A stretch of 37,888 nucleotides of DNA from DRR378314_1703; one strand, 5' to 3'; counted from the first letter of the stretch, positions 12,555 to 32,946 are shown. Numbers and translations: made by a program. The notes: generated by a model not told the origin, from the sequence alone.

Positions 12555-12578
12555 TCAAATTGCGCGGAACATCCTGAC

Positions 12579-14534: not shown

Positions 14535-14537
14535 ACC

Positions 14538-15767: not shown

Positions 15768-16504
15768 GGACGCTTCTCGAAGTATCTGGCGTTTCCGTCT
15801 CTTTCGACGGGTTTCGCGCTATCAACAACCTGTCCTTTCGCGTGGCCGAGGCAGAGTTACGCGCCGTGATCGGTCCGAATGGCGCAGGCAAGACCACCTT
15901 CATGGATATCGTGACAGGCAAAACAAAACCCGATGAAGGGCGCGTGATCTGGGGTGAAAAATCGGTGTCCTTGCTGAAAATGAGCGAGGCCAAGATCGCA
16001 CAGGCCGGTGTCGGGCGAAAATTTCAGAAACCCACAGTTTTTGAGGACCAGACGGTGCAGGAGAACCTGCAAATGGCATTGAAAAAACCACGCGGTTGGC
16101 TGGCGGTGCTTGGGTATAGGACAAGCACCGATGACCTCGAGAAAATCGCGGATCTGGCGAAACAGATCGGTCTAAGTGACGCGCTGACACGTAAATCGGG
16201 CGAATTGAGCCATGGCCAGAAACAATGGCTTGAGATTGGCATGCTGTTGGCACAGGAGCCCCGTCTGCTGCTTGTCGATGAACCTGCCGCCGGTATGACG
16301 CCGGAAGAGCGTGAACACACTACAGATATTCTGCTTGAGGCGGCCAGAACCCGCGCCGTTGTTGTCGTTGAACATGATATGGATTTCGTGCGCCGGCTCA
16401 ATTGCAAGGTCACGGTGCTGCATGAAGGGTCGGTTCTGGCCGAAGGCAGTCTTGATCACGTGACCTCAAACCAAGACGTGATCGACGTCTATCTGGGACG
16501 GTAG
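15764..16504 (+). CDS. urtD: Urea ABC transporter ATP-binding protein UrtD
   Basis: VSFDGFRA, GPNGAGKTT, GRKFQKP, LSHGQKQWLEIGM and DEP. Confidence 0.95.
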   Translation: MRTLLEVSGVSVSFDGFRAINNLSFRVAEAELRAVIGPNGAGKTTFMDIVTGKTKPDEGRVIWGEKSVSLLKMSEAKIAQAGVGRKFQKPTVFEDQTVQENLQMALKKPRGWLAVLGYRTSTDDLEKIADLAKQIGLSDALTRKSGELSHGQKQWLEIGMLLAQEPRLLLVDEPAAGMTPEEREHTTDILLEAARTRAVVVVEHDMDFVRRLNCKVTVLHEGSVLAEGSLDHVTSNQDVIDVYLGR

Positions 16505-16507
16505 GAT

Positions 16508-17203
16508 ATGTTGAAACTTGAAAACCTCACACTGCACTACGGGCATTCTCAAATTCTCAATGGCATTTCGATGGAGGCTGCGCAGGGTGAAGTAACCTGT
16601 GTCATGGGCACCAATGGCGTTGGCAAAACCAGCCTGATCAAGGCGATTTCGGGCACGCATCCGCGCTCTGGCGGGGCGGTCCATTTTGATGGGATCGAAC
16701 TGGGTGTGTTTCCGGCGCATAAACTGGCCCATCTGGGTATCGCGTATGTCCCGCAGGGCCGCGAGATCTTTCCACTAATGTCCGTACGTGAAAACCTTGA
16801 GACCGGTTTTGTTTGTTTGCCCGCCGAAGAACACTTCATCCCCGACCAGATTTTCGAGCTGTTTCCCGTGCTAAAAGAGATGCAAATGCGACGGGGCGGC
16901 GACCTATCGGGAGGTCAGCAGCAACAGCTGGCAATTGCGCGGGCACTGATCACCAAGCCAAAGCTGTTGCTTCTGGATGAACCAACCGAAGGGATTCAAC
17001 CCAATATCATCCAGCAAATTGGCAATGTCATCCGCCTGTTGCGCGATCAGGGTGACATGGCAATTGTGCTTGTCGAACAATATTTTGAATTCGCCTATAA
17101 TCTGGCCGACCGCTTTGTCGTTTTGCGGCGCGGGGAGGTTATCTTGCAAGGCGCAAAGCAGGATCTGTCCAAAGCCGAAGTTTTGAAAGGTGTTTCCGTG
17201 TGA
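16508..17203 (+). CDS. urtE: Urea ABC transporter ATP-binding protein UrtE
   Basis: GTNGVGKT, YVPQGREIFP, GGDLSGGQQQQL and DEPTEGIQP. Confidence 0.95.
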   Translation: MLKLENLTLHYGHSQILNGISMEAAQGEVTCVMGTNGVGKTSLIKAISGTHPRSGGAVHFDGIELGVFPAHKLAHLGIAYVPQGREIFPLMSVRENLETGFVCLPAEEHFIPDQIFELFPVLKEMQMRRGGDLSGGQQQQLAIARALITKPKLLLLDEPTEGIQPNIIQQIGNVIRLLRDQGDMAIVLVEQYFEFAYNLADRFVVLRRGEVILQGAKQDLSKAEVLKGVSV

Positions 17204-17340: not shown

Positions 17341-18066
17341 CTACAGCGTCAGCGTTCCAATGCTGGACCCGCCGCAGACAAAAAGCGTCTGCCCTGTCAC
17401 AAAACTATTTGCAGGATCGCAGAAGAACAGGAAGGCGTTGGTGACATCCTGCACCTGCCCCAGACGCCCGACCGGAATGCGTTTGGTCAATTCCGCTTCG
17501 CGTTCGCTTTCCTTGGGAATAATCCCCCAAAAATTGTCTGTTTGTACCGGGCCGGGTGCCACAACATTCACTGTAATGCCGTGCGGTGCCAGTTCCAGCG
17601 CCCATGTGCGCGCCATTCCGATCATACCCGCCTTTGATGCAGAGTAAGCCGTGCGTGTCGGCGCACCCAGGGCCGCCCGCGATGCATTGAACATGACGCG
17701 TCCGAAACCACGCTCTTTCATTCCCGGCAGAAATGCTTGCAGCAATGTCAGAGCAGAGCCGAGATGTAATTGTGCCAATCCGGTGATGTCATCCGGTTTT
17801 GCGTCTTCGATCAGATTGGGCCAGATCAATCCGGCGTTATGAACCAAATGGGTCACCTCGTAACGCGCGGCAATATCGGCGGCCGCCTGCGCCACTGACG
17901 CAGGATCCAGTAAATCCGCCTCGATATGTTCGCAACCTTCGGCGCTCCACTCTGCGATATTACGTGCAATGGACACCACACGGTACCCCCGTTCCAGCAG
18001 ACGTTGTGCCAGATCTGCGCCAATGCCTTTACTCCCGCCGGTAATGACGGCTGTGTGTTCAGTCAT
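17341..18066 (-). CDS. Classical short-chain dehydrogenase/reductase
   Basis: TGGSKGIG, HNAG, YSASK and NVVAPG. Start at ATG 18066, overlapping the upstream TGA. Confidence 0.92.
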   Translation of the reverse strand: MTEHTAVITGGSKGIGADLAQRLLERGYRVVSIARNIAEWSAEGCEHIEADLLDPASVAQAAADIAARYEVTHLVHNAGLIWPNLIEDAKPDDITGLAQLHLGSALTLLQAFLPGMKERGFGRVMFNASRAALGAPTRTAYSASKAGMIGMARTWALELAPHGITVNVVAPGPVQTDNFWGIIPKESEREAELTKRIPVGRLGQVQDVTNAFLFFCDPANSFVTGQTLFVCGGSSIGTLTL

Positions 18067-18845
18067 TCGATGTCTCCGGGTATCAGGGCCAGCACGCGCA
18101 GCGGGCTGCCGGTGCCGCCTTTGATCTTCAGCGGTGGCGCGATCAGCATCGCACCGGTCGGCGGCAGCTGGTCCAGATTGCACAGGCATTGCAGCCCGTA
18201 TTTTCCAGCCCCATGTAGCAGGTAATGTGCCGGATAAGGCGGTTCATAGTGCATCCCCTGCCCTGCGTCGGTGCCCACTGTTTCCGTGCCGAAACCACGG
18301 ATACCGCGTTCCAGCAGCAGCGAAATGGCCGCTGGTGTCGGCCCCGGCGAATGTGGGCCGTCCTCGCGCATATTCAGGTAATCAGTACCGCGCCGCCGCG
18401 ACCAATCACTGCGCATCAGCACCCATACCCCTGAGGGGATCTTGCCGTGCTGATCTTCCCAGGCAGTGATGATGTCGGGCGTCAGCTCAAAGTCATCGTC
18501 GCTGGCGGCCCCATCGGAACAGTCGAGCACAACCACAGGTCCGACAAAAGCCTCGACCGGAATTTCATCAACCGCACCCGCCGGTACATCTTTGCCCGAA
18601 ATCCAGTGAATAGGTGCATCAAAATGCGTGCCTGTGTGTTCGTTCAGCGTCAGGTTGTGCCATTTCCATGCCGGGCCGCGATGATCGTAGGCAGACACCT
18701 CCTCCATCCGAAAGCGCGCGCATTGGCCAAACTCCGGCGGCAATACGATCACCGGGAAATCGGCGTCCAATGTATGTGTCAGGTCGACGATCCTTGCCTG
18801 CCCGCCCGCAAGAGCTGCGGCCAGCCCTGTGATTGCATCGCTCAT
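18063..18845 (-). CDS. Cyclase/kynurenine formamidase-family metallohydrolase, isatin hydrolase-like
   Basis: EHTGTHFDAPxH metal motif, GTDAGQ and PLKIKGGTGSPLR. By recollection very close to Labrenzia aggregata isatin hydrolase A (e.g. FPVIVLPPEFGQCARFRMEE.SAYDHRGPAWKWHN). Confidence 0.88.
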   Translation of the reverse strand: MSDAITGLAAALAGGQARIVDLTHTLDADFPVIVLPPEFGQCARFRMEEVSAYDHRGPAWKWHNLTLNEHTGTHFDAPIHWISGKDVPAGAVDEIPVEAFVGPVVVLDCSDGAASDDDFELTPDIITAWEDQHGKIPSGVWVLMRSDWSRRRGTDYLNMREDGPHSPGPTPAAISLLLERGIRGFGTETVGTDAGQGMHYEPPYPAHYLLHGAGKYGLQCLCNLDQLPPTGAMLIAPPLKIKGGTGSPLRVLALIPGDIE

Positions 18846-20089
18846 GAATGTCCCCCGCGCGTTTCACGTTCCAACAACGCCGGATCGGACAGCCACCGGT
18901 CAAGCGCATCTGTGGCGATATCCCCACATGCGACCTCTTCCAGCCCGTCAACCAAGCCGTCGATGACCGTCCGCGCCAGCGCTTTGGGTGACACCTTGGG
19001 CGGCAGCAATGGCTGGTGCCAAGCGTCATCAACCGGGCCTGTATAGACATTCATCACCCGCAACCCCGACGCACTGAACTCGCCACGCATGGTCTGGGCA
19101 ACGGATCGCGCCGCCGCTTGGCTCGCCGCAAAACCACCAAATCCCATATCCGGTGCCAGCGCCTGTACTGACAGAATATTAACCCATGCCACCGCAGCGT
19201 TGATTCCGTCTGCGGTACGTGCGCACATCGCAGGGCCGAACCCCTGGGCCAGTCGCATCAGGCCCAGCACATTGGTTTCCAATCCGTCGCGGGCAAAAAC
19301 CGTATCGCCAGCCACCACCCCACCGGGGCGGATGAATTGCGCGGTGTTGATTAAAATATCAACCTTCCCGCCGATTTCTGCCGCCAGTCGCGCAACAGAG
19401 GCCGTGTCGGTCACATCCAGCGGCATCAGCGCCACGTTTTCCATCGCCGCCAATGCCTCCCGGCCTTCCCATCGCCGCCAGCTTTCCGCTTCCCCAAGAA
19501 AGATGGTCGTCGCCCCGGCGCGCTGCAATGCTTCGGCCAAGGGTTGTGCAAGAGGCGAACGCGCATCAGTGATCAGGACGCGCCGGTGTTTCGGGTCGCA
19601 CGACATCGCGCGGAGCATCGGATCATCCTGCATCGTTTCACTTCCTTTCAGCGGCAGCGCCACCATGACGCCCTGTCCGGCCTTATCCAATTTCAATGCC
19701 ATGCGTACGCCATCACCGCGCGCAACCTCGCCATGCAGATGGCAGACAACAACCGGCCCCGCTGCAAGTTGGACCGAGCCCATCCGCCATGGCAAACGTT
19801 CACGGAAATAGGGGTCGGGCGAGACCCGAATGGTGGTTTGCGCCAGCACCTGCGCGGCGGGATCAGTCAAACGCCACTCAAGGGCTACAGACAGACATTT
19901 GCAGCAAGCATCGCGCGGCGGGTATTGAACCGCACCGCAGTCCACACAGTGTTGCAGCGCAAATTGTCCCCGCGCAGCCGCAATGCCCAGACCCAATGCC
20001 GCGCGCGATCTCTTCACCGGCGGCAGCGTCGGTACAACGGTCCTTTTTTGCGGGTCTTTTGGTGCCGGAACCGGCAGCGGTTTGGTCAT
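18842..20089 (-). CDS. DUF35-type Zn-ribbon/OB-fold domain fused to a degenerate SDR domain
   Basis: CVDC...YPPR..CCKC Zn ribbon plus OB fold. C-terminal Rossmann-like region has TDARSPLA in place of TGxxxGxG and FAASQ in place of YxxxK. Start ATG 20089. Confidence 0.85.
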   Translation of the reverse strand: MTKPLPVPAPKDPQKRTVVPTLPPVKRSRAALGLGIAAARGQFALQHCVDCGAVQYPPRDACCKCLSVALEWRLTDPAAQVLAQTTIRVSPDPYFRERLPWRMGSVQLAAGPVVVCHLHGEVARGDGVRMALKLDKAGQGVMVALPLKGSETMQDDPMLRAMSCDPKHRRVLITDARSPLAQPLAEALQRAGATTIFLGEAESWRRWEGREALAAMENVALMPLDVTDTASVARLAAEIGGKVDILINTAQFIRPGGVVAGDTVFARDGLETNVLGLMRLAQGFGPAMCARTADGINAAVAWVNILSVQALAPDMGFGGFAASQAAARSVAQTMRGEFSASGLRVMNVYTGPVDDAWHQPLLPPKVSPKALARTVIDGLVDGLEEVACGDIATDALDRWLSDPALLERETRGGHS

Positions 20090-21255
20090 CTGCCCGATCC
20101 TTCGATAATAGCCGCAGCAGAGCAAACACCGCGATCATAGTTGATCATGCCAAAGCCTGACACCATTGCGCGACGGGCATCTGCCACCTGCGTGCCGCCT
20201 GCCTGCCCGGTGACTTGCCGGATGGCTTCGACCAAGCCGAGATATCCCCCCGCTGCCCCGGCCTGCCCAACAGAGAGCTGCCCCCCGGACGTGTTATGCG
20301 GAAAATCACCAGAGATCGTCAGATCGTGGTCACGCACGAAACCAGCTCCCTCTCCCTTGGCACAAAATCCCAAATCTTCGAATTGCATCATCGAAATAAC
20401 CGGATAGTCGTCATAGGTCTGCAACAGGTCAATTGCTTCGGGGCCATGGCCAGCCATGCTGTACAACTCGTCTATGTCCATCACCCAGCCACCGCGCAGC
20501 TGGATCGGATCGTCGGCAAAGCCATTGTGCCGCTCGATTGTTCCGCTGATACGGGCAAAAGGCAGCGCGCGCTGTTTTGCCTCCTCTTCGCGCATGACCA
20601 GAAACGCTTCCGCGCCAGCACAGGGCATGACACAATCAAACAACGAAATCGGGTCTGCTATCATACGTGCGTCCATATATTGCGACAGCGTCAAAGGTGT
20701 CTTCATCAACGCATCTGGATAGAGCAGCGCATTGGCCCGCTGCGCCACCGCGATCTTGCCGAAATCCTCGCGGGTGGCCCCATATTCAGCCATGTAAGCA
20801 TCCATCAGTAGCGCGAAACTGGCATTCGGGCCGCCGAAACCATAAGGGAACGTGGCATCCATCGAAAACCGCGAGAACCCGGTCAGCAAGGTCCGAAAAC
20901 TGTCAATTCGATTGGCGTCCCCCGCCACACAGGCCACCACATCTACATCCCCGGCCTGCACCGCGCGCGCAGCACGACGCAGCGCAATCACGCCACTGGC
21001 GCCGCCTGTCGGCACGGTATCCAACCATCGCGGGCAAAGCCCGAGGTGCTGTGTCAACCCTACCGGCGTATCAGGAAACAGCGAAAAGCTGGACACGGAA
21101 AACCCATCAAGATCACGCGGTGCAATATCCGCCTGCTCCAGCATGGCGCGCAACGCGCGCGCGATCCACCAATGTGCGGTTTCGTTGCTGTAGCGAATGT
21201 AGGGCACGGAGACCGGCACCGCGAGCACGACCCCATCATAACCCTGCCGCTTCAC
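20086..21255 (-). CDS. SCP-x/Ltp2-type thiolase-fold protein
   Basis: AQRANA..P.A, PISLFDC, YDDY and NTSGGQLS. The nucleophile position reads TGGASG (no Cys). GTG start 21255 with SD GGAG, overlapping the upstream TGA. Confidence 0.87.
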   Translation of the reverse strand: MKRQGYDGVVLAVPVSVPYIRYSNETAHWWIARALRAMLEQADIAPRDLDGFSVSSFSLFPDTPVGLTQHLGLCPRWLDTVPTGGASGVIALRRAARAVQAGDVDVVACVAGDANRIDSFRTLLTGFSRFSMDATFPYGFGGPNASFALLMDAYMAEYGATREDFGKIAVAQRANALLYPDALMKTPLTLSQYMDARMIADPISLFDCVMPCAGAEAFLVMREEEAKQRALPFARISGTIERHNGFADDPIQLRGGWVMDIDELYSMAGHGPEAIDLLQTYDDYPVISMMQFEDLGFCAKGEGAGFVRDHDLTISGDFPHNTSGGQLSVGQAGAAGGYLGLVEAIRQVTGQAGGTQVADARRAMVSGFGMINYDRGVCSAAAIIEGSGR

Positions 21256-22877
21256 GAGGCACTCCGTTTTTTCAGGTGGCGGGTATCGATGGTTGCAGGA
21301 TCTTTGATCAACGCGACCGCCTGCGATTTCAACACTGCACGTTGCAGTTTCTGTGTGGAGGTCAGCGGCAGCGCACTGACAAAATTGATAAATCCGGGAG
21401 CCTTGTAATAGGCAAGTTGGCTCAGGCACCAGGTCGTGATTTCATGGGCCAGCTTTGCCGGATCATCTGGGCTCTGCTTGGCTACGATGCAGGCAAATAC
21501 CTCATCACCGCGCACCGCATCAGGTACCGCGGCAACCGCTGCGCTGGCGATGTCAGGGTGGCGCATCAGGGTCGATTCCACCTCAACTGCGGCAATGTTT
21601 TCGCCGGATCGACGAATAACGTTTTTCTTGCGGTCGACAAAGAACATCGCCCCATCTGCCTCTTGCCGCACGATATCGCCGGTGTGAAACCAGCCATCGG
21701 CCCAGACTTCATCCGTCGCTGCCTTATTCTTGAAATACCCTGCAAAGAAACCTCTGCGCGGATCTTCACCGGCGCGCCGTACCAGAAGTTCCCCCTGCGC
21801 AGCCTCAGCACCGGCATCATCAACCAGACGCACCTCAAGGCCGGCATCAGGCTTGCCAAGGCAGCTTTCTCCGACCCGGCGCGGTTCGCGGTTGGCACAG
21901 ATCACCGCCCCTGCCCCCGTCTCGGTCATTGCCCAGGCCTCGACCAGTCGAAAACCAAAACGCGCCTCGAAATCGGCGTGCAACTTGGGGTCAACACCCG
22001 CGCCAAAGCCAAAGCGCAGCCTGTGATCCCGATCACCCGAATCCGGTTCGACCGCCATCAACATCGACGGCATAACGCCCAGGTAATGCAGGCAAGTCGC
22101 ACCGGAAGCGCGCACCGACGCCCACCAGCTGCGCGGATGAAACCGATCCAGCACCGTAAGGCATCCGCCCACAGCAATCATTGCCATAAAGGAATAGGCC
22201 ATCGCGTTCATGTGGAAGATCGGCAGTGGCGTAATCATGCGCTCGCCATCCGTCTTTAGTGCACAAAGCCCGCCGGTCTGTGCATACCAGCGTCCAGCGT
22301 CGAGAAAATATGTGTTGGTCAGGATACAGCCTTTAGGCTGACCAGTGGTGCCCGATGTATAAAGCAGTGCCGCCTCTGCATTTTCACTGCCCCCCTCGCG
22401 CGCCGCAATTGCATCTTGCGTAACCGGCAAGGGCCACGGCTCATCAGTTGCGATCACCGGCATTTCGCGTCCCGCCTCGGCGGCTGCCGCACGCAGTTCT
22501 GCACATCGTTCAGGCAGCGCTAAGGCCAGCACCGGTTCCGCATGCTCGATCATATAGCTTAGCTCCGCCGCGCGCAGATCCGGGTTCACCGGCACCACCG
22601 ACAGGCCCAACCCATTCAGGGCCAGCCACCAAAGAAAGAACGCGGGCCGGTTTTCCAGCAGCAGCATTACCCGTTGCCCTGAGCGATAATCGGCTTCGCG
22701 CACAGCCACCTGCAGTTCGCTGACTTGATCCATCGCCGCAGCATAGGTCATATCCCCGACAGTAATGTCGTAGATACCAGCGGTTTCCGGCAAAACATTC
22801 AGAAATGCGCGATCAGGATAACATTTTGCGGTAGCCTCAAAAGCGGCAAAGACCGAAGTGGTCTCGGGTGCGATCAT
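21252..22877 (-). CDS. AMP-binding acyl-CoA ligase (CaiC-like)
   Basis: YTSGTTGQPKG, AMTETG, GWFHTGD, VDRKKNVIRRSGENI and LPLTSTQK. Start ATG 22877. Confidence 0.93.
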   Translation of the reverse strand: MIAPETTSVFAAFEATAKCYPDRAFLNVLPETAGIYDITVGDMTYAAAMDQVSELQVAVREADYRSGQRVMLLLENRPAFFLWWLALNGLGLSVVPVNPDLRAAELSYMIEHAEPVLALALPERCAELRAAAAEAGREMPVIATDEPWPLPVTQDAIAAREGGSENAEAALLYTSGTTGQPKGCILTNTYFLDAGRWYAQTGGLCALKTDGERMITPLPIFHMNAMAYSFMAMIAVGGCLTVLDRFHPRSWWASVRASGATCLHYLGVMPSMLMAVEPDSGDRDHRLRFGFGAGVDPKLHADFEARFGFRLVEAWAMTETGAGAVICANREPRRVGESCLGKPDAGLEVRLVDDAGAEAAQGELLVRRAGEDPRRGFFAGYFKNKAATDEVWADGWFHTGDIVRQEADGAMFFVDRKKNVIRRSGENIAAVEVESTLMRHPDIASAAVAAVPDAVRGDEVFACIVAKQSPDDPAKLAHEITTWCLSQLAYYKAPGFINFVSALPLTSTQKLQRAVLKSQAVALIKDPATIDTRHLKKRSAS

Positions 22878-23353
22878 GGCAGCAACTGAATATTGCGAAA
22901 GGCTGCATCGCAATTGACGATATCAACCCGCTTGTTGGCGATGCGCAGCTTGCCCTCAACCAATGCCAGTTCATGCCGCGCGGTGACGGCAAGCAGCTGC
23001 TGTTCGTCCAGACGCGTTTCGACATAATGCATGAACGTCGTGGTCACGAACTGGCCTGCGTCCTCGTCCATCTCATCCACGAAAGGCCGCTGGATTACGT
23101 GGTGACAACGGCTTTTGGGTTTCTGGCTGAAAGTACGCGCGCCCATCAGGCGTTCCACCCGCAGCTTGAGCATGAACATATCTTCATACATCAAAGAGGT
23201 CTCGTTGATCGGATCGGTCTGTTTATAGTCCAGCGGCATCCAATAGTGGCCATCAGGCAACCACAGATTCAGCCACTCGGCAAAACGTCCCTCGTCCAGC
23301 ATGCGTACTTCGTCATAGATGAAATCAATCAGGCGCTCGCGTGTAACGGTCAT
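22874..23353 (-). CDS. Aromatic ring-hydroxylating dioxygenase beta subunit (IadE-like)
   Basis: FIYDEVRMLDEGRFAEWL..W...G.YWMP, LKLRVERL and SQKPKSR. Directly follows the alpha subunit. Confidence 0.93.
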   Translation of the reverse strand: MTVTRERLIDFIYDEVRMLDEGRFAEWLNLWLPDGHYWMPLDYKQTDPINETSLMYEDMFMLKLRVERLMGARTFSQKPKSRCHHVIQRPFVDEMDEDAGQFVTTTFMHYVETRLDEQQLLAVTARHELALVEGKLRIANKRVDIVNCDAAFRNIQLLP

Positions 23354-24693
23354 TCTGCAACCTCCGCATTTTTGTCCATTCCCATGGTCATGAACTTGAC
23401 CCATGCATGGAACTGATTGCGCATCTGACGTTCGGTGGTACCGTTTTCGACTGCTTCGACATCAAAATCTTCGTCATCTTCGATCAGACGTTGGATATTG
23501 ACCCACTCCAACCCGTCAACCAACAGCCCCTCCTGCGCGCGCTCGTACATTTCCAGATCATCATGCCCCACAATAGAGGTCGGCGCATTGATCATCCGAT
23601 TGTACATAGCCGTGCGCGCGGTCAATTCTTCAGGTGCGTCAACCAGCCGGTAAATGTAGCTTTCCACAATTGTCCTATCCGCCGCCAACGGGATAAAGAC
23701 CCGCAGCTGCTGGATTGGACCTTTGATCATGATATTCGGAAAATATACTGTATTGTGGCGATTTTCATCCAGGATCGCCTTGGCCTTATCCGCGCCATAG
23801 CTGGCGCTCAAGGCTTCGAAATATCCCGGAATGGCAGAATAATCCGAATGGATTGAATGGTTCACCCCGGTGTGCCCATGCCCATTTGGCCAGGTGCGAA
23901 TGCCCATCCCCTCAAAGAATTCATAAGGCGACATAAAAGGCGCGATAATCTCCATCGCAGCGGGTTTTGGGGCGTCTTCGGGCAGGTCCAACTCTTCGTA
24001 AAGCTTGACCGCCGTCCCGGCAGAACTTTCATGCGCGACCATCGGGTGACATGTATCAGTCTGGTTTTCGACCAGCATCTTCCAATTGCAATAATGCAGA
24101 TAGCGTAGCGGCGGACCAACGACCTCAAGCCGCCCAGCGGGAGAACGGTCCACCATGTTATCAAGTGATGAAAGGCTATCGCCAAAGAACTCCTCAAAGC
24201 TGATGCCTGTCTCGGCCAGTCGCGCAAAGATGAAGCCCCGGTAATTTTTCACATCACCAACCGCGCGCATGCCCTTGCCGCTTTCCGTCTTTTCCAGCCC
24301 GGTGTCCTGATAACCTTTCTTCAGCGGAATCGCCAAAAGGCAGCCATCGGTCTTGAACGACCATGCGTGATAAGGACAACGGAAAAACTTGCCGGTGTTG
24401 CCCTGCCGGTCAATTACAATCTTGGTGCCCTTATGCGGACAACGGTTCAACAGGACATGGATATCACCCGTGGAATGGCGCACCTGGATCACCGGCTGAT
24501 TGCCAATCTGTGTGCTGAAGTAGTCACCCCTGTTGGGCGTCTGGCTTTCATGGCCGACAAATACCCAGGCATTGGCAAAGAGATGTTTCATCTCCTGCTG
24601 GTAAACTTCCTGATCTGTATAGATGTCGCGATGAACCTGATGTGGTTGAACAAGTGCTGCCAACGCCGCAGGGTTGTCGGTGTAACGTCCCAT
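23350..24693 (-). CDS. Rieske aromatic ring-hydroxylating dioxygenase alpha subunit (IadD-like)
   Basis: Rieske CPH...CPYH and mononuclear Fe site NWK..VEN..DTCHPMVAH...HDD. SD GGGAG before ATG 24693. Confidence 0.95.
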   Translation of the reverse strand: MGRYTDNPAALAALVQPHQVHRDIYTDQEVYQQEMKHLFANAWVFVGHESQTPNRGDYFSTQIGNQPVIQVRHSTGDIHVLLNRCPHKGTKIVIDRQGNTGKFFRCPYHAWSFKTDGCLLAIPLKKGYQDTGLEKTESGKGMRAVGDVKNYRGFIFARLAETGISFEEFFGDSLSSLDNMVDRSPAGRLEVVGPPLRYLHYCNWKMLVENQTDTCHPMVAHESSAGTAVKLYEELDLPEDAPKPAAMEIIAPFMSPYEFFEGMGIRTWPNGHGHTGVNHSIHSDYSAIPGYFEALSASYGADKAKAILDENRHNTVYFPNIMIKGPIQQLRVFIPLAADRTIVESYIYRLVDAPEELTARTAMYNRMINAPTSIVGHDDLEMYERAQEGLLVDGLEWVNIQRLIEDDEDFDVEAVENGTTERQMRNQFHAWVKFMTMGMDKNAEVAE

Positions 24694-24704
24694 AATATTC
24701 TCCC

Positions 24705-25658
24705 TCAAATATCCAGCACAAGGCGGGGCGACTTTGACCGGCTGACGCAAATCTGCATTACCTTTCCCGCAGCACGCTCTGCCTCTGATAAAACCACATC
24801 CCGGTGGTCCGGTGTGCCGCTGATCACATCACATTGGCAAATGCCACAATCGCCGCGCTGGCAATCATACATCACATCGACCCCACCCTCTTCCAATGCC
24901 TCAATGATGGACTGTCCCGGAATGACGGTGAACACCGCCCCTGTTGACGCAAGTTCAACTTCAAAAGCGGTATCACCCACCTCTTCCTGTGGTGCGTCAA
25001 ACAATTCGAAATGAATCCGCGCTGCCGCGATCCCGGCCGCCTCGGCCTTTGCCTTTGTTGCATCAATCAAACCCTTGGGGCCACAGACATACAGATGCGC
25101 GGTTGGCGCCAGATCCGCAATCACCCCATCAAGGTCCAATGCAGAAAGCGGATCGTCGTCACAGTGCAGATGCAGCTTGTCACCAAGTGATCCCCGCAGC
25201 ACATCGCGATAGGCCATCAACGATGCACTGCGGCCGGAATAGTGAAATACAAATTCTTGTTGGTGGTCCATTAATGTCATCGCCATCGAGATCATCGGCG
25301 TGATGCCGATCCCCCCCGCAAGAAGCACAGCCGGCGCATCAAGGTTCAGCGGAAAATCATTCTTGGGCAGCGCGCAGCTAATCGCCGCCCCGGCCTCAAG
25401 CCCGTGCATATATTTGGAGCCACCCTTTCCTTCCGGTTCACGCTGTACCGCGATCCGGTATTCCTGCGGCGTGGGGCTGATCGGTTCAAACGCAATAAGA
25501 GAATAGGCACGGGTTTCGCCGTCAGGCAGATCAAACAGCACGTGTGCACCCGGCGCAAAGGTAGGCAGCGCCGCGCCATCCGTCGACGCCAGACGAAATT
25601 CGCTGATGCGTTCCGTCAACGGAGTTACTTGCGTAATCTTAGCTTCAATTTTTGACAT
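24705..25658 (-). CDS. PDR/VanB-family FMN/[2Fe-2S] oxidoreductase (IadC-like)
   Basis: RAYSL, GGSKY, AGGIGITP, YVCGP and C-terminal ferredoxin CQRGDCGIC...QIC. Confidence 0.94.
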   Translation of the reverse strand: MSKIEAKITQVTPLTERISEFRLASTDGAALPTFAPGAHVLFDLPDGETRAYSLIAFEPISPTPQEYRIAVQREPEGKGGSKYMHGLEAGAAISCALPKNDFPLNLDAPAVLLAGGIGITPMISMAMTLMDHQQEFVFHYSGRSASLMAYRDVLRGSLGDKLHLHCDDDPLSALDLDGVIADLAPTAHLYVCGPKGLIDATKAKAEAAGIAAARIHFELFDAPQEEVGDTAFEVELASTGAVFTVIPGQSIIEALEEGGVDVMYDCQRGDCGICQCDVISGTPDHRDVVLSEAERAAGKVMQICVSRSKSPRLVLDI

Positions 25659-25679
25659 CTGCCGCCCTCCCTGTCAAAC

Positions 25680-25708
25680 AATATGATTTTTCATGTATTT
25701 TTGGTCAA
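25680..25708 (-). promoter_or_regulatory. Sigma70-like promoter of the dioxygenase operon overlapped by a putative MarR operator
   Basis: Minus strand TTGACC-N17-CATATT. The motif AATACATGAAAAATCATAT (25681-25699) covers the spacer and the -10 element. Confidence 0.65.
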
Positions 25709-25793
25709 GGGTTTTCTTGCCATCAGTGACCATCACGGTCATTTAAGAGCCGCCGGACGCGTTTCTATCCGGCCTATCAAAGGGTTGAGCCGC

Positions 25794-26282
25794 GTGTCGC
25801 AACAGATTACGGAACCAGTTACTGAAGAAAACGGGGCGCAAGGCGCGGCATTTGTCCCCGATTACCTGCTCTATCTTCTGGCCGCGGCCAGCGAAGCGGC
25901 CAGTGCGCAGTTTCACGCAAAGGTCCGCAAGATGGGTTTGCGGGTGCCGGAATGGCGCGTATTGGCCTGCCTTGCAGATCAAGATGGCGCGATGATCACC
26001 CACCTCGCACGCATCGCCTTGGCAGAGCAGTCCCGATTGACCCGTATCATCGCCCAAATGGAACAGCGCGGGCTGTTGACCCGCCGCAACGACCCCGCAG
26101 ACGGGCGTCGCGTTCGGGTTTTCTTGACGGATCAGGGGCGTGACTTGGCGGCAACACTGGTGCCCCAGGCCCGCGAACATGAAACCGCCCTGTTAGAGCT
26201 ATTGCAAGGCAAGGAGGGTGCCCAACTTAAACCCGCCCTAAAGTCGTTACTGAAAGTGCTGGAGGCCAGTTCGCCGGAGTAA
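25794..26282 (+). CDS. MarR-family transcriptional regulator (IadR/IacR-like)
   Basis: FVPDYLLYLLA...EWRVLACL...QSRLTRII..ME.RGL..R...DGRRVRVFLT..G. Likely GTG start 25794. Confidence 0.9.
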   Translation: MSQQITEPVTEENGAQGAAFVPDYLLYLLAAASEAASAQFHAKVRKMGLRVPEWRVLACLADQDGAMITHLARIALAEQSRLTRIIAQMEQRGLLTRRNDPADGRRVRVFLTDQGRDLAATLVPQAREHETALLELLQGKEGAQLKPALKSLLKVLEASSPE

Positions 26283-26331
26283 GCAAGGCCGGCCCCTACG
26301 AAAAAAAGGTTCCAATAGCGTTTGAAATGTG

Positions 26332-26350
26332 AATACATGAAAACGCATAT
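26332..26350 (+). promoter_or_regulatory. Second copy of the putative MarR operator, upstream of the TRAP operon
   Basis: AATACATGAAAACGCATAT, 17/19 identical to the copy at 25681-25699 (opposite strand). TTGAAA lies at 26322. Confidence 0.65.
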
Positions 26351-26415
26351 ACTTGGTGAGCGCGCCAAAGGCGCTCCCATCAAGTCATATCAAACGATAT
26401 GGGGAGGAGCCCGAA

Positions 26416-27435
26416 ATGACCAAAATCACCAAGTTTCTGACGACGTCAGCCTTGGCACTCTGTACCGCTACAGGTGCCTTTGCTGCCGAAACCCTGACAA
26501 TCTCGACCTGGCTGCCACCAACACATCCGGTCAACACCGGCATGTTTGCCAAACTGACCGAAATGATGTCCGAAGCCACCGGCGGCGAGATCACAACCGA
26601 ACTTAAGAACGGCCTGGCCCCGCCCCCGGCACAGATGGATCTACTGCTGGATGGTGCTGCGGATATCGCGATCCTGTTTCATGGATACACCCCCGGCCGT
26701 TTCGTGGGCACCAAACTGGTTGAGGTACCCGGCTATGAAGGCAGCGCCGAGGCCGCTTCAGTCGCACATTGGCGTGTACATGAAGCGATGCTGGCGGAGC
26801 TGAACGAACATCGTGGCGTGAAAGTCATCGCGCTGACCACACATGGTCCGGGTCAGATCCACTCTAACAAGGAAGTAAATACCCTTGATGATCTGCAAGG
26901 GTTGAAAACCCGCCTTGGGGGCGGTGTTTCGGCTGATGTCGGAGCGGAACTCGGGCTTGTCGGCATTCAGGTACCTGCCCCCAAAGTCTATGAAACACTG
27001 GATTCCGGTGCCGCCGACGCAGTGGCGATGAATATGGGCGAACGGATCAGCTTCAAATTGGATGAAGTTGCCAAAAACGTCTATGAAATGCCCGGCGGTT
27101 TCTACCGCGGTTCTTTTGCGGTCATCATGAGTCAGGAAAAATTCGACAGCCTGCCGGAAGAGATGCAAACCGCATTGGACGAACAGGTTTTTGGTGAACC
27201 TTCCAGCCGCATGATGGGTGCCGTCTGGGATCAAAGCGATGTTGATGCACGCGCCAAGACCGAAGCGGCGGGTGACAATACAATCGTCACCGCCTCCGCT
27301 GAGGACCAATCCCGCTTTGCCGAAATGGCCGCGCGGGTGCGTGATAAAATCATTGCAGAAATCACTGATGCAGGGATCGACGGTGAGGCCGCATATGAGA
27401 TGATGCGCGCGGAAATGGCTGCGGCAAACAAGTAA
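26416..27435 (+). CDS. TRAP transporter substrate-binding protein (DctP family)
   Basis: Signal peptide, WLPPTH, GYTPGRF, LQGLKTR (conserved Arg) and YETLDSG. SD GGAGGAG. Confidence 0.92.
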   Translation: MTKITKFLTTSALALCTATGAFAAETLTISTWLPPTHPVNTGMFAKLTEMMSEATGGEITTELKNGLAPPPAQMDLLLDGAADIAILFHGYTPGRFVGTKLVEVPGYEGSAEAASVAHWRVHEAMLAELNEHRGVKVIALTTHGPGQIHSNKEVNTLDDLQGLKTRLGGGVSADVGAELGLVGIQVPAPKVYETLDSGAADAVAMNMGERISFKLDEVAKNVYEMPGGFYRGSFAVIMSQEKFDSLPEEMQTALDEQVFGEPSSRMMGAVWDQSDVDARAKTEAAGDNTIVTASAEDQSRFAEMAARVRDKIIAEITDAGIDGEAAYEMMRAEMAAANK

Positions 27436-27495
27436 CCGACGTTGGCAGCCGGGCACAGGCGTTGCTTGCGCCCGGCGCGACCGCAAGGGAATTCC

Positions 27496-27999
27496 ATGCG
27501 CTCTTTGATCCGCCTTTTCGAAATCGTTTCTGTTATTCCGATGGTGATGGCCTCTTTGGCGCTGTTTGCGCTGATGGGGCTGACCTTCGCTGATGTACTG
27601 ATGCGCTCATTGTTCAACGCGCCGATACAGGCAGCGACCGAGCTGATCCGCATCGGCATTGCACTGATTGTCTTTTCCGCCCTCCCGATCCTGTCGGCCC
27701 GTGAAGGACATATCGCAGTCGATCTGCTGGACGGCCCCTTTGCCCGCTTCGGGCTGGAGCGCTGGCGCAATGCGCTGGTCACCTTAAGCTGCGGTGCGAT
27801 GCTTTGGTTGCCGGCGCAGCGCGTGGTTGATCTGGCCTATCGCGCGCGCAGCTATGGGGATGTCACGGAATACCTTGAAATTCCAACGTTCTATATCGGC
27901 ATGTTTATCGCCGCCATGACCTTTCTGACTTCAATTGTACTGATTGTACGCGGCCTTTTTTATCTCTTCGCCCCCCAGCTTCTGGACACATCCAAATGA
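27496..27999 (+). CDS. TRAP transporter small permease (DctQ family)
   Basis: ADVLMRSLFNAPI..ATEL and HIAVDLL, with four hydrophobic segments. Confidence 0.9.
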   Translation: MRSLIRLFEIVSVIPMVMASLALFALMGLTFADVLMRSLFNAPIQAATELIRIGIALIVFSALPILSAREGHIAVDLLDGPFARFGLERWRNALVTLSCGAMLWLPAQRVVDLAYRARSYGDVTEYLEIPTFYIGMFIAAMTFLTSIVLIVRGLFYLFAPQLLDTSK

Positions 28000-29309
28000 T
28001 TGCATCCGCTATCGGTTTCGCCGCCGTGTTCCTTCTTGTTCTGCTGCGTATCCCGATTGCTTTTGCGATGGGTTTTGTCGGCATGGTCGGGCTTGTCTAT
28101 GAAACCAGCTACCGCGCCTCCATTTCAATGGTGTCACGGCTGATCATCGACACCAGTCAGGATTACGGCCTGTCCGTGATCCCACTGTTCATCCTCATGG
28201 GGCTCTTCGTGAACAAGGGCGGCATCAGCCGCGAGCTTTATCAAGTGTCCAATGCTTTTCTGGGGCATTTTCGCGGAGGGTTGGCGATGGCGACAATTGT
28301 CGCCTGCGGGGGCTTTGCCGCGATCTGTGGTTCCTCCCTCGCAACGGCCGCCACGATGTCAAAGGTCGCTATGCCGGAAATGCGAAAGTTCGGCTATGCT
28401 GACAGCCTGTCGACCGCCTCCATCGCGGCGGGCGGAACACTGGGCATTTTAATCCCACCTTCTGTCATTCTGGTAATCTATGGCCTTCTGACCGAGACTT
28501 CTATCGGGGCTTTGTTCATCGCTGGCATCATTCCGGGGTTCCTTGGCATTCTTTTCTATCTGGGCGCCGTCCGGTATTCCGTAGCAATGAACCCGGAATC
28601 CGGCCCCGCTGGGCCGCGCGCCACCTGGCGCGAACGGCTGCATGCGCTGAATCACGTCTGGTCTGTACTGGCGCTCTTTGCACTGGTGATTGGCGGCCTT
28701 TACGGCATATTGGATTTCTGGCCAATCCATCTGGCGTTTTCCCCAACTGAAGCTGCCGGCATGGGGGCAGCAGGTGCTTTCCTGATTGCCTTGGCGCGCG
28801 GGGGCCTGAACTGGCGTGCTCTGCGTGAGGTGCTGGAAGAAACAACCCTTACCACGGCATCGCTTTTTGCCGTTCTTATCGGGGCATGGATTTTCTCCAA
28901 CTTCGTCAACCTCGCTGGCCTGCCCGAAGGCTTGCTTGCCATGGTGACCGCTTTGGAACTTGGGCCTTGGGTGGTCATGGGGCTGATCTTGCTGATTTAC
29001 ATTGCATTGGGATGTATATTTGAAAGTATGTCGATGCTGTTGCTGACGGTGCCGATCTTTTTCCCACTGGTCACCAGCCTTGGATTTGATCCGGTATGGT
29101 TCGGCATCATCGTTGTTGTCGTGACGGAAATCAGCCTGATCACACCGCCCGTGGGGCTGAACGTCTTTGTTCTGAAGGGTGTTGTCGGCGATGTCAGCAC
29201 TGGCACAATCTTTCGCGGTGTAACCCCTTTCTGGATTGTCGACATCCTGCGCTTGCTGCTGCTGCTCGCCTTTCCAGCTCTGGTGCTTTTCTTACCATCG
29301 CAAATGTAA
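27996..29309 (+). CDS. TRAP transporter large permease (DctM family)
   Basis: IPLFILMG, CGSSLATAA, GGTLGILIPPS, SPTEAA and LITPPVGLNVFV. Confidence 0.94.
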   Translation: MIASAIGFAAVFLLVLLRIPIAFAMGFVGMVGLVYETSYRASISMVSRLIIDTSQDYGLSVIPLFILMGLFVNKGGISRELYQVSNAFLGHFRGGLAMATIVACGGFAAICGSSLATAATMSKVAMPEMRKFGYADSLSTASIAAGGTLGILIPPSVILVIYGLLTETSIGALFIAGIIPGFLGILFYLGAVRYSVAMNPESGPAGPRATWRERLHALNHVWSVLALFALVIGGLYGILDFWPIHLAFSPTEAAGMGAAGAFLIALARGGLNWRALREVLEETTLTTASLFAVLIGAWIFSNFVNLAGLPEGLLAMVTALELGPWVVMGLILLIYIALGCIFESMSMLLLTVPIFFPLVTSLGFDPVWFGIIVVVVTEISLITPPVGLNVFVLKGVVGDVSTGTIFRGVTPFWIVDILRLLLLLAFPALVLFLPSQM

Positions 29310-29322: not shown

Positions 29323-29352
29323 GGGGGTGCCCGGTCTATACCGGACACCCCC
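29323..29352. terminator. Hairpin between convergent dctM and amine oxidase genes (probable bidirectional terminator)
   Basis: GGGGGTGCCCGG-TCTATA-CCGGACACCCCC, with an A-rich left flank. Confidence 0.7.
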
Positions 29353-29372: not shown

Positions 29373-31355
29373 CTACTGCGGGTCGCGTATGGTGATCGCT
29401 GGATTCATTGGGAAGAAATTATGCGGCATGATATGCACTGTCTTCCACTCCGTTGACATCACCGGCCAGTCTTCAGTGCGCGGCACATGGTGGAACCCTG
29501 CGGTGAACCAAGTGACAATATCCTGATCCTGAAGTGGCGCGTCATCCTTAACCCATTGCGCCAAAGTATCAGACCCATCACTTTGCAGGGCGAACTTACC
29601 CCCTGCATAGCGTTCGGCAGGGTCATGCACCGTGTTCCAGACCGAATTCTCGATATAGGCGTTTCGGATCATCGGCGGGTCGTTTTCAAAATCAAACGGC
29701 CCATAGGCGACGCTGCCGTGATGGATCATATAACCAGGCTTATGGCCCAATGGGCCCTTGCGATCCGGGTTCTGCAACATGAAGTAACGCGGCTTGAAGG
29801 ATGAAACCTGATACTTCGCCTCCATCTCGGATTTAGGCATGCTGTGCTTAACCTTCCACAACGACCGCCGGGGGCTGTCATCGTCGACTTCCGCAGCTAC
29901 GATGTCCATCGTCATAAAACGGTTGCTTGGTTGATCGATGTCAAAATCAATTCGGAAATTGAAATAGTGATCGTGATTGGCCGCCACCAGATTGGGAGCA
30001 ATCAAGGTGCCATATTCGGTTTCCGCCACCGCAGTTGGATCATCCATCGATCTGGCATTGGCCCCTTTGACCCCGTCCAATCCGGTTGCGCCGATCTTGA
30101 TCTCGATCTGCCCGTTTTGTTTGAAACGGTAGTCGATCAGGTAATCATAGTTACCGACTTCAGAAGCGGTGCGTACCACCAGTTCCGTCTCTGGACGTCC
30201 TTCGGCAGGCACATATTGATCCGGGCCCTGCGCGAAGACTTCGAAATGCCGCCATGCAGGGTCACCGATATTGCGCTCGAAAATACAGATCGCATCTGGA
30301 ATTTCGAGTGGGTTGCCACCATCATCCGCGATCATCGCAGGCAGGAAGGTTGCGTGACTTGGGCAATCTATACCCGCTACCAAAGGCGTCAGGAACAGAC
30401 CAAAGCCGTATTCGCCACTGTCCATATAGGTGCGCCAATACAAGCCCTCGCTGGGATCCATATAGGGCACGAAGACTTCGGACAAATGCGCCTGATAAAT
30501 CAAAGAGCGCCATTCATCGCCGTCTTTGACATCAATGTTCGACAGGACCGGGCCCGGGCGTTTGTCTACCCGCAGCCGCATCCGCCACATGTCCCATTCC
30601 AGCGCACCGTTGTCGTAGGTAAAGTTTGCGCCGCCCTCTTGCGAAAGGGTGGCCGGATTCATCTCGGGCCGCTGGCTTGTCCGCGCCTCGATTTCCTCTC
30701 CGGTATATCCCCAGCCATCTTCGGGTACCGCCACAAGACCCTCGTCAATCACCCGCAAGGCGGTCCCACTTTGCAGATCGACAACGGCATAAATGCCTTC
30801 AATCGGTTTGGCATAAAAGTTGGAACCGTCAGGGTTCACATAACACGGCACCTTCATCAGGCGGGTGCCATCGTCCTCATCGTTGAAGAAATTCCCGGCG
30901 GTCAATGGCAGGCAGAACACCTGCTCCGGCGTCAAACCACGTTTCGCCAAACCCGCAATCATATCTGGATGGGTCAGAGCGGCCCCCATCGCATTGGCAA
31001 ATTCAGCAAACAAGATCATCGGCTGCCCTTCGACCGGGCTGTTACCTTCGACCTGTCCGCTGGTCAGGTTCACCACCGCCTCGATAAAGCCGGTACCATC
31101 AGCGTTGGACATATGTACCATCGCCCGTCGGTCCAGCTGATCACCCTCCTGCCAGGCGAGCACCTCGGCCTTTGGTGGTTCGATCAGTTCAATCAACGGA
31201 TAAAGCGTGTCATCCCCCGCCAAATCGCTGGCGCGCAGGATTTCGTTGATCTTTTGATATTCCGGGCCAGACAGCCCATCCAGCGGATGCGCCATCGCAC
31301 CCCCTGCCAGCATCACAAGGGCCGCGCTGCCCCCAAGTATGGTTTTGCGTAACAT
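29373..31355 (-). CDS. Copper-containing (TPQ) primary amine oxidase, Sec-exported (TynA/MaoA-like)
   Basis: Signal peptide ending AMA|HPLD, base Asp in YMDSGEYG, TPQ motif GNYDY, and Cu ligands NHDH and GFHHVPR.EDWPVM. SD GGAGGAG before ATG 31355. Confidence 0.95.
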   Translation of the reverse strand: MLRKTILGGSAALVMLAGGAMAHPLDGLSGPEYQKINEILRASDLAGDDTLYPLIELIEPPKAEVLAWQEGDQLDRRAMVHMSNADGTGFIEAVVNLTSGQVEGNSPVEGQPMILFAEFANAMGAALTHPDMIAGLAKRGLTPEQVFCLPLTAGNFFNDEDDGTRLMKVPCYVNPDGSNFYAKPIEGIYAVVDLQSGTALRVIDEGLVAVPEDGWGYTGEEIEARTSQRPEMNPATLSQEGGANFTYDNGALEWDMWRMRLRVDKRPGPVLSNIDVKDGDEWRSLIYQAHLSEVFVPYMDPSEGLYWRTYMDSGEYGFGLFLTPLVAGIDCPSHATFLPAMIADDGGNPLEIPDAICIFERNIGDPAWRHFEVFAQGPDQYVPAEGRPETELVVRTASEVGNYDYLIDYRFKQNGQIEIKIGATGLDGVKGANARSMDDPTAVAETEYGTLIAPNLVAANHDHYFNFRIDFDIDQPSNRFMTMDIVAAEVDDDSPRRSLWKVKHSMPKSEMEAKYQVSSFKPRYFMLQNPDRKGPLGHKPGYMIHHGSVAYGPFDFENDPPMIRNAYIENSVWNTVHDPAERYAGGKFALQSDGSDTLAQWVKDDAPLQDQDIVTWFTAGFHHVPRTEDWPVMSTEWKTVHIMPHNFFPMNPAITIRDPQ

Positions 31356-31385
31356 ATTATCTCCTCCATAAATTTGCATTTCCAA

Positions 31386-31415
31386 GTTCCCGCTTCGCCT
31401 CCCCGGAGCGGGAAC
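31386..31415 (-). other. Intergenic stem-loop between the ALDH and amine oxidase genes
   Basis: Minus strand GTTCCCGCTCCG-GGGAGG-CGAAGCGGGAAC (11/12 pairs), no strong U-tract. Confidence 0.55.
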
Positions 31416-31427
31416 CAGCATACTTGA

Positions 31428-32846: not shown

Positions 32847-32946
32847 GATGTCCTCCCAATCTCCACAATCGACGGATGCCGATTGCGCTCCCTGGAAGTC
32901 AGGCTAGGCGCTCATCCTGTGGACATCTTGGGCGAACGCGACAGCG

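Follow-up and report, generated by a model that had tools for sequence, protein, structure and literature searches.

Roseobacters are mainly treated as producers of the auxin indole-3-acetate (IAA), as the literature consulted here bears out. The question raised by the gene cluster at positions 17341–29309 of DRR378314_1703 is whether its host takes up and degrades this compound. The window in which the cluster lies is the whole stretch of DNA analyzed here (37,888 nucleotides). An earlier reading, made without database searches (the sequence-only reading), had proposed a catabolic locus of the iad type, consisting of an eight-gene operon on the minus strand (17341–25658), a divergent MarR gene and a tripartite ATP-independent periplasmic (TRAP) system ending at 29309. 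All twelve genes were found to be intact and in the order and on the strands proposed, and the outer coordinates were correct.

We interpret the locus as an iad-type unit for the uptake and aerobic catabolism of IAA, with a probability of about 0.88. At the same level of confidence, its predicted orthologue is the Ruegeria pomeroyi DSS-3 locus, and iadCDEFGHIJ/iadR of Variovorax paradoxus is its predicted homologue. This interpretation was adopted because gene content and order, matches to solved structures, functional residues, the literature, conservation of the locus and a recurrent operator all agree. Comparisons of the alpha subunit, beta subunit, reductase, MarR protein and cyclase all spoke for iad, in line with the sequence-only reading. 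Among the relatives of the locus, binding of IAA by the orthologous MarR protein, loss of IAA from R. pomeroyi cultures, the chemistry of Variovorax IadCDE and the activity of an orthologous isatin hydrolase have been demonstrated. Statements below on the Variovorax pathway, on auxin-binding MarR proteins and IAA removal, and on steroid aldolases are taken from Jiang et al. (bioRxiv 10.1101/2025.10.25.684584), Conway et al. 2022 (PMC9613470) and PMC12329534, respectively.

Gene content and the Rieske oxygenase

On the minus strand, Pfam and NCBIfam assigned the eight consecutive genes to a reductase, a Rieske alpha subunit, a Rieske beta subunit, an AMP-dependent ligase, a thiolase-fold protein, a DUF35 protein fused to a short-chain dehydrogenase/reductase (SDR) domain, a cyclase and an SDR. 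The divergent genes on the plus strand encode MarR, DctP, DctQ and DctM. The order of the operon is iadCDEFGHIJ, which matches both the description of Variovorax and the R. pomeroyi table.

The alpha subunit IadD (447 residues; 23350–24693, minus strand) matched V. paradoxus IadD over its whole length in a PDB search (9O71_A, E = 1.7e-171; 7YLS_B, E = 3.1e-170). The next solved oxygenase was HcaE at 1.1e-39, and the comparison with other Rieske oxygenases that had been suggested earlier was thus decided for IadD. Jiang et al. describe 9O71 as IadDE of strain CL014 and 7YLS as a near-identical homologue. Three peptides that the sequence-only reading had named as shared with IadD are indeed present, and they align to 9O71 as claimed. 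The beta subunit IadE (159 residues; 22874–23353, minus strand; Pfam Ring_hydroxyl_B) matched IadE of 7YLS_A, 8H2T and 9O71 with an E value of 1.7e-42, and the next match was at 1.3e-8. The first gene of the operon, iadC (24705–25658, minus strand), is preceded by the Shine-Dalgarno sequence GGGAGGG and encodes an FMN/NADH/[2Fe-2S] reductase of the PDR/VanB type (317 residues; Pfam Fer2 and NAD_binding_1). Its best match was 7YLR (E = 1.8e-84), followed by phthalate dioxygenase reductase (2PIA, 6e-51). We infer that 7YLR is IadC from its length (330 residues) and its accession neighboring 7YLS.

Functional residues of IadD were mapped by hand using its alignment with 9O71 and the residue list of Ma et al. 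2023. All of the named residues fell on the expected letters in the Variovorax row, and the numbering was also checked at His280 of 9O71. The Rieske ligands Cys85, His87, Cys106 and His109 are identical (4/4), as are the iron ligands His216, His221 and Asp377 (3/3). Eight of the nine residues of the IAA pocket are also identical; at the ninth, Leu211 is replaced by Gln.

A database homologue of 569 residues (P0031) joins a beta-subunit domain to Rieske and catalytic domains in one chain. Either this beta-alpha fusion is real, or gene calling ran across the 4-base overlap and produced an artefact.

The regulator, its predicted operators and the TRAP transporter

The iadR gene (25794–26282, plus strand; Pfam MarR) encodes a MarR-family repressor, probably of 162 residues from a GTG at 25794, in a frame that is open from 25683. 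This start was preferred because of the alignment with 3CDH, the 164-residue RefSeq gene and the promoter lying within the longer open reading frame. The placement of IadR rests on its PDB matches and its contact residues. Its nearest solved relative is 3CDH from R. pomeroyi (E = 3.6e-47), followed by MarR_73 of Variovorax (7KFO, E = 1.1e-20). In a mapping also made by hand, five of the seven residues listed for MarR_73 by Conway et al. 2022 as holding IAA are identical in IadR (Tyr15, Ser28, His32, Trp45 and Arg46), and they include all three ligands of the IAA carboxylate (Ser28, His32 and Arg46). The remaining two are Ala18, replaced by a Tyr that is common to the IAA-binding 3CDH, and Val65, replaced by Ile.

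To locate an operator, 49 intergenic regions upstream of iadC in related loci were compared. A CTTGAC element, a spacer and the palindrome TATATGAAAATTCATATT are conserved across these regions, and the exact core ATGAA-N2-TTCAT is present in 35 of the 49. In the window, the iadC promoter (25680–25708, minus strand) was found by a promoter scan as TTGACC, 17 nucleotides and CATATT. The first operator, O1, is the 18-bp palindrome TACATGAAAAATCATATT at 25680–25697, which spans the spacer and the −10 element of this promoter and scores 27.4 bits with a position weight matrix trained on 61 sites upstream of iadC. Only one other site in the 37.9-kb window reached 14 bits. This second operator, O2 (TACATGAAAACGCATATA; 26334–26351, plus strand; 20.1 bits), lies 65 nucleotides before the start of dctP. 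In simulated sequence of the same length, 0.04 sites of at least 17 bits and 0.01 sites of at least 20 bits are expected by chance. A repeat finder reported no inverted repeat in the iadC–marR spacer; the operator emerged only from the comparison of the 49 regions. A palindrome TGACC-N5-GGTCA at about 25727–25741 was also considered as an operator, and it was dropped because the palindromes that recur in related loci do not include it.

The TRAP genes follow O2 on the plus strand. They encode the solute-binding protein DctP (26416–27435; 339 residues from the ATG at 26416, which is preceded by GGAGGAG; Pfam DctP), the small permease DctQ (27496–27999; 167 residues from the ATG at 27496; Pfam DctQ) and the large permease DctM (27996–29309; 437 residues; Pfam DctM, E = 5.6e-95; TIGR00786 above its cut-off). 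In related loci whose DctP is at least 60% identical, a site of at least 14 bits was found within 300 nucleotides upstream of dctP in every case (29/29), including loci whose TRAP genes flank the operon at its opposite end. The matrix had been trained without any of these 29 sites. Where DctP is more distant, the site was present in 15 of 25 loci. Since the operator recurs upstream of orthologous dctP genes, the TRAP system probably shares the iad regulon. The regulator acting at both operators would be IadR, and membership of this regulon suggests that the transported substrate is IAA. DctP is thus a predicted IAA-binding protein; its best PDB matches were 4P56 (E = 3.4e-52) and 7NR2 (9e-41). 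In five Hoeflea loci (L009, L011, L012, L013 and L019), two tandem operator-like sites stand 20 nucleotides apart before dctP, and other genera have one.

Two further candidates in the window were not retained. An operator-like site at 33943–33960, at the annotated start of a FeaR-like gene, scored 13.3 bits. It was not counted because even the weakest training site scores higher, chance alone would give 0.19 sites of this kind per window, and no such site accompanies the amine oxidase of the related loci L037, L042 and L070. The ATP-binding cassette (ABC) transporter at 11124–17203 was rejected as an IadK-like uptake system; it is of the urea-transporter (urt) type and lies beside urease genes.

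Proposed side-chain cleavage and isatin hydrolysis

The functions of iadC to iadJ in Variovorax have been described by Jiang et al., and IadF, IadG, IadH and IadJ were likened to their Variovorax counterparts through published gene descriptions. The iadF gene (21252–22877, minus strand) encodes an AMP-forming acyl-coenzyme A (CoA) ligase of 541 residues (Pfam AMP-binding, E = 7e-57, and AMP-binding_C). The last gene of the operon, iadJ (17341–18066, minus strand), encodes a classical SDR of 241 residues (Pfam adh_short and adh_short_C2); an alignment of 71 sequences shows its canonical motifs, TGxxxGIG and YxxxK, conserved. Variovorax IadJ, which has the corresponding position in its locus, oxidizes the hydrated product of IadCDE to dioxindole-3-acetate.

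IadG (20086–21255, minus strand) is a thiolase-fold protein of the SCP-x/Ltp type (389 residues; Pfam Thiolase_C_1). Its best PDB matches were the CtSal aldolase-DUF35 complex (9MYR, 9.2e-47), an uncharacterized 'thiolase' (4U4E) and Ltp2 (6OK1, 7e-37). The Sal and Ltp2 aldolases lack the thiolase cysteines, and the Tyr of their YDxY/F motif serves as the base (PMC12329534). Similarly, IadG has a Gly (GGASG) at the position of the nucleophilic Cys of thiolases, and its YDDY motif is the same in all 34 sequences compared, a count that left out about 30 rows with a stop in the tblastn segment, where the gene overlaps iadF. The acid residue is Cys304 in Sal and His296, together with Tyr344, in Ltp2; at the third motif position, IadG has neither Cys nor His but Asp in all 34 sequences. 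Therefore, IadG is likened to Sal and Ltp2 in its working, but it is placed in neither clade.

IadH (18842–20089, minus strand; 415 residues) has a DUF35 part with a zinc ribbon and an OB fold (Pfam zf-ChsH2 and OB_ChsH2_C), which is fused to a degenerate SDR-like domain (adh_short). The CxxC...CxxC zinc ribbon is kept. In the SDR-like half, the commonest motif variants among 60 aligned sequences replace TGxxxGxG by TDxRxP and YxxxK by FxxS[Q/N/H]. An active dehydrogenase is thus doubtful, as the cofactor and catalytic motifs are missing. Because this half lacks the glycine-rich loop and the Tyr-Lys pair, we read IadH as a putative scaffold that supplies the DUF35 zinc ribbon.

Chemical reasoning bears on the same step. 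Dioxindole-3-acetyl-CoA has a tertiary alcohol, which cannot be oxidized to a 3-keto thioester; therefore, a retro-aldol split to isatin and acetyl-CoA is the chemically simple route. We somewhat favor the view that IadG and IadH are a retro-aldolase of the Sal/Ltp2 type and its DUF35 partner, rather than a thiolase and a dehydrogenase. In the steroid side-chain systems Sal-Shy and Ltp2-ChsH2, the aldolase is likewise a thiolase-fold protein that lacks the nucleophilic Cys, keeps the Tyr of YDxY/F and has a partner in which a DUF35 zinc ribbon is fused to a further domain. The differences are that IadG has YDDY and not YDCY or YDHF, that the domain fused in IadH is a degenerate SDR and not a MaoC hydratase (PMC12329534), and that the proposed substrate of IadG is dioxindole-3-acetyl-CoA, on which its aldolase activity is predicted. 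Isatin released in this manner would feed the isatin hydrolase directly.

This hydrolase is encoded by iadI (18063–18845, minus strand), which specifies a Mn-dependent amidohydrolase of the cyclase family with 260 residues (Pfam Cyclase, E = 2.4e-39). The resemblance to isatin hydrolase A noticed in the sequence-only reading was confirmed by a match to the enzyme of Labrenzia aggregata (PDB 5NNB/5NNA; E = 1.4e-145 over residues 5–255). Isatin hydrolase A is identical over 253 residues to the product of the gene at the iadI position of a Roseibium aggregatum locus (L047), and this product is 79% identical to IadI of the window. By sequence, the window cyclase is an orthologue of the characterized enzyme. 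IadI contains HTGTHFDAPIH, which we take to be the Mn-binding motif of isatin hydrolase.

On the basis of these assignments, the working of the unit may be proposed as follows. In the absence of IAA, IadR would occupy the 18-bp palindrome, one copy of which lies over the iadC promoter and the second before dctP; binding of IAA would release it from the DNA. IAA would be imported by DctPQM. Electrons would pass from IadC to the Rieske oxygenase IadD3E3, which would oxygenate the 2,3-bond of the indole, and IadJ would oxidize the hydrated product to dioxindole-3-acetate. IadF would then form the CoA thioester, and IadG, held by the DUF35 domain of IadH, would catalyze the retro-aldol cleavage to isatin and acetyl-CoA. 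Finally, IadI would hydrolyze isatin to isatinate, which would lead on to anthranilate.

Operon structure

The starts of the longest open reading frames are too long for six genes and make their coordinates overlap by up to 178 bases. With the likely starts, every junction between iadD and iadJ is a 4-base ATGA or GTGA start/stop overlap, and a purine-rich ribosome-binding site accompanies each of them. For example, the ATG starts of iadF, iadH and iadJ overlap the stops of iadE, iadG and iadI, respectively, as ATGA, and iadG begins with a GTG that overlaps the stop of iadF. The likely starts also yield genes as long as those that RefSeq gives for this module on plasmid p1SUD7 of Sulfitobacter sp. 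D7, as is seen for iadJ, iadF, dctP and dctQ. A G+C-rich hairpin of 13 pairs (29323–29352), detected by a terminator scan between dctM and a convergent amine-oxidase gene, marks the right end of the unit.

Distribution of the module

Relatives of the alpha subunit were sought in one genome per species; at least 569 stretches were found, and the best 80 were kept. The leading relatives among the matches listed are Sulfitobacter sp. AS92 (93% identity) and M05 (91%). The 'marine Roseobacter-like' origin that had been proposed holds because these best matches are Sulfitobacter. The best 80 also include Planktotalea, Hoeflea, Lutimaribacter, Roseibium, Ruegeria marisflavi and Bradyrhizobium. A gene was scored as present in these loci when a tblastn match covered at least half of the query; the counts are lower bounds, as several loci are cut by contig ends. 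IadE was found in 80 of the 80 loci, IadC in 79, IadF in 73 and IadJ in 70. IadG, IadH and IadI were each found in 64, MarR in 62, and DctP and DctM each in 54. Wherever both the MarR gene and iadC are present (62 loci), the two are divergent; they directly adjoin each other in 48 of these loci and are about 3 kb apart in 14.

In an even sample of 401 genomes from the family of Sulfitobacter sp. AS92, an IadD match at 1e-100 or better was found in 40, so that about one in ten of the sampled species carries IadD. Damaged copies of iadD occur in the family; one has an internal TGA (G314, C408:1515-2816), and another is split into two adjacent pieces (G175, C13:63322-64652).

Matches to the whole 12-kb module, with a nucleotide identity of about 77%, were obtained in 24 plasmid records, and 12 of these cover at least 80% of it. 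The records belong to Sulfitobacter (13), Roseibium/Labrenzia (10) and Loktanella (1). Only a few kilobases separate the module from repABC on p1SUD7. The RefSeq entries of the module on plasmids bear just generic product names, p1SUD7 included, as the sequence-only reading had anticipated for standard annotation.

In a metagenome-assembled genome (MAG) of an uncultured Sulfitobacter (L003, 4011–17314), the same urtD and urtE genes adjoin dctM instead of iadJ. Relative to urt, the whole 12-kb iad-TRAP module is therefore reversed, and this suggests that it moves or inverts as a block.

Comparison with known auxin loci

The closest known system is that of R. pomeroyi DSS-3, which removed IAA from culture and whose MarR protein (MarR_3CDH) binds IAA with a Kd of 0.237 µM (Conway et al. 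2022, PMC9613470). According to the source table of Extended Data Fig. 4 in that paper, the R. pomeroyi locus agrees with that of the window in all twelve COGs, in their order and in their orientation, with the TRAP genes included, and its MarR protein is the closest solved relative of IadR in the window. However, the window represents another genus, and alpha subunits of the Ruegeria type are about 76% identical to that of the window (L061). A second MarR gene (iadR2 type) lies a few genes away in R. pomeroyi, and none was seen in the window, in which the flanks are a urea transporter and an amine-oxidase cluster. The source table classes the R. pomeroyi locus type as 'Vario' (iad) and gives its TRAP genes no assigned name. 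The term 'TRAP' was not found in the main text of PMC9613470, and 'Sulfitobacter', 'Labrenzia' and 'Roseibium' were not found in its supplement, one unreadable and one unsearched file excepted.

The iadCDEFGHIJK2/iadR system of V. paradoxus CL14 (PMC9613470, PMC10374108, bioRxiv 10.1101/2025.10.25.684584) shares the enzyme set and order from C to J, clear homologues in IadD, IadE and the IadC-like reductase, a MarR repressor with the same carboxylate-binding triad and anthranilate as the expected end product. In contrast, uptake in the window is of the TRAP type, whereas Variovorax uses the ABC binding protein IadK2. The window locus also lacks iadA, iadB and the ABC genes of the 25-gene hot spot, its host is a marine alphaproteobacterium, and its IadD has Gln for Leu211. 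The R. aggregatum locus that encodes isatin hydrolase A (5NNA/5NNB; PMC6117287) at the iadI position has the same iad genes, MarR and TRAP genes, but the TRAP genes lie downstream of iadJ and not beside MarR.

The iac locus of Pseudomonas putida 1290 also serves aerobic IAA catabolism under a MarR repressor, but its pathway ends in catechol and it has another gene set. What the window locus has in common with the iac-flavour COGs is limited to the generic ones for SDR, Rieske alpha, Rieske beta and reductase (PMC9613470 table). In terms of Pfam content, no iac-specific genes were found in the window locus and its flanks beyond the shared Rieske, reductase and SDR types.

The locus is thus not new in kind, as the gene set and IAA degradation were already reported for R. 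pomeroyi DSS-3 (Conway et al. 2022, PMC9613470). Our search of the literature on marine or phycosphere IAA degradation and on TRAP-mediated IAA uptake turned up only the R. pomeroyi data, a count of iad-like operons in MAGs (2 of 304 marine MAGs; PMC11630574) and a study in which ABC uptake was assumed for Sulfitobacter (PMC12114110). The operator with its copy before dctP, the aldolase reading, the prevalence figure and the location on Sulfitobacter plasmids were not found in this literature. The operator, the TRAP substrate and the retro-aldol step are proposals of the present analysis.

Alternative interpretations and neighboring genes

Several points weigh against the interpretation of the locus as an IAA unit, or against parts of it. 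The changes at Leu211 of IadD and at Ala18 and Val65 of IadR mean that the substrate preference could differ in detail. Variovorax has an IAA-specific ABC binding protein, IadK2, and no counterpart was found within the unit, where the TRAP system stands in its place; IadK2 has been reported to be non-essential (bioRxiv 10.1101/2025.10.25.684584). The IAA ligand of DctP is a prediction, and the best solved relatives of DctP bear generic names only. With respect to side-chain cleavage, the third motif residue of IadG is Asp and neither the Cys of Sal nor the His of Ltp2. Moreover, Jiang et al. name IadG a ketothiolase and IadH an alcohol dehydrogenase, and after IadFGH they detect C8H7NO2, at the level of dioxindole, and not isatin. 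Finally, the two nearest genomes of Sulfitobacter and that of R. aggregatum (G001–G003) were searched for an AntA-type anthranilate dioxygenase (TIGR03228), and nothing exceeded the cut-off.

Some of these points would also fit an iad architecture whose natural substrate is another indole- or aryl-acetate, such as halogenated IAA, indole-3-propionate, phenylacetate or oxindole-3-acetate, with IAA as a side substrate at most. One residue of the IadD pocket and two indole-contacting residues of IadR differ, the uptake system is of a different class from the IAA-specific IadK2, and MarR_73 has been crystallized with nine auxins besides IAA (PMC9613470). However, eight of the nine pocket residues and all of the carboxylate ligands are kept. 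The closest solved MarR protein (E = 3.6e-47) is the R. pomeroyi protein with the tightest IAA binding measured, and its host, which has the same layout, removes IAA. Variovorax IadCDE showed no turnover of IBA or IPA. In addition, IadI is orthologous to a proven isatin hydrolase, which requires an indole-derived C8 product. We consider another natural substrate to be very unlikely.

The genes to the right of the unit bear on a possible source of the IAA. Beyond the hairpin, and convergent to dctM, lies a module on the minus strand (29373–35249), which encodes a TynA-like primary-amine oxidase (29373–31421), a FeaB-like aldehyde dehydrogenase (31428–32846), a FeaR-like AraC regulator (32947–33957) and an iron alcohol dehydrogenase (34092–35249), all below their equivalog cut-offs. 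These genes directly adjoin the TRAP genes, and the module is possibly a feeder from tryptamine to IAA. The locus might then mainly dispose of IAA made in the cell from tryptamine or tryptophan, supplied by the oxidase and the aldehyde dehydrogenase, and not of external auxin. Four other genomes also have the oxidase next to iad. In L037 and L070 it comes straight after iadJ and shares its strand, in L042 it is close by, and in G172 its distance from iadD is 6.9 kb. Close oxidase orthologues (at least 59% identity) were found in 4 of the 401 family genomes, and all four are IadD-positive; the co-occurrence has a Fisher's exact P value of 8.6e-5, or 8.6e-4 without the center genome, with no correction for phylogeny or genome size. 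On the other hand, a dedicated importer that depends on a binding protein and lies under the same operator favors an external substrate. The oxidase cluster is convergent to the unit and separated from it by the hairpin, and the oxidase is absent from 77 of the 80 related loci (the three that have it beside iadJ being L037, L042 and L070) and lies on another contig from iad in the nearest relative. Moreover, systems of the TynA/FeaB type usually act on phenylethylamine or tyramine. Disposal of internal IAA as the main role is therefore slightly less probable still than another natural substrate.

That the pathway is decayed or silent in this strain is highly improbable: although some family members carry the broken iadD copies described above, all twelve frames are open and full length, with ribosome-binding sites, start/stop overlaps from iadD to iadJ, a promoter and an operator.

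The other neighbors of the unit are as follows. On the left, positions 5714–17203 carry the accessory and structural urease genes ureG, ureF, ureE, ureC and ureD, and then those for the binding protein, the two permeases and the two ATPases of a urea-type ABC transporter. This urease/urt block abuts the iadJ end and is unrelated to the iad unit. On the right, an open frame of 429 residues on the plus strand (33975–35264) has no family match and is antisense to the iron alcohol dehydrogenase gene; it is probably an antisense shadow and not a gene. Positions 35391–37888 encode a PAS-LuxR regulator; after it come another ABC binding protein of the branched-chain type and an ATPase, truncated where the window ends.

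Implications for algae-roseobacter exchange

Auxin exchange between algae and roseobacters is usually told as a bacterial gift. With a widespread, regulated module for uptake and degradation, some members of the same bacterial group are able to take this signal away. The principle has already been shown in R. pomeroyi, and the gain made here is incremental: a defined operator, a candidate TRAP transporter for IAA, a sharper proposal for side-chain cleavage and a list of marine strains, with Sulfitobacter sp. AS92, M05 and D7 and S. indolifex among the cultured carriers of the module.

A broader picture may be offered as speculation, and it is rather doubtful at present. Many roseobacters, including Sulfitobacter with the module on repABC plasmids, might be high-affinity auxin sinks fed by an IadR-controlled TRAP importer. 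In a subset of them, the module of FeaR, aldehyde dehydrogenase and primary-amine oxidase might turn tryptamine into IAA, giving a route from tryptamine through IAA to anthranilate. If this were true, one genus would both produce and remove the auxin signal around algae.

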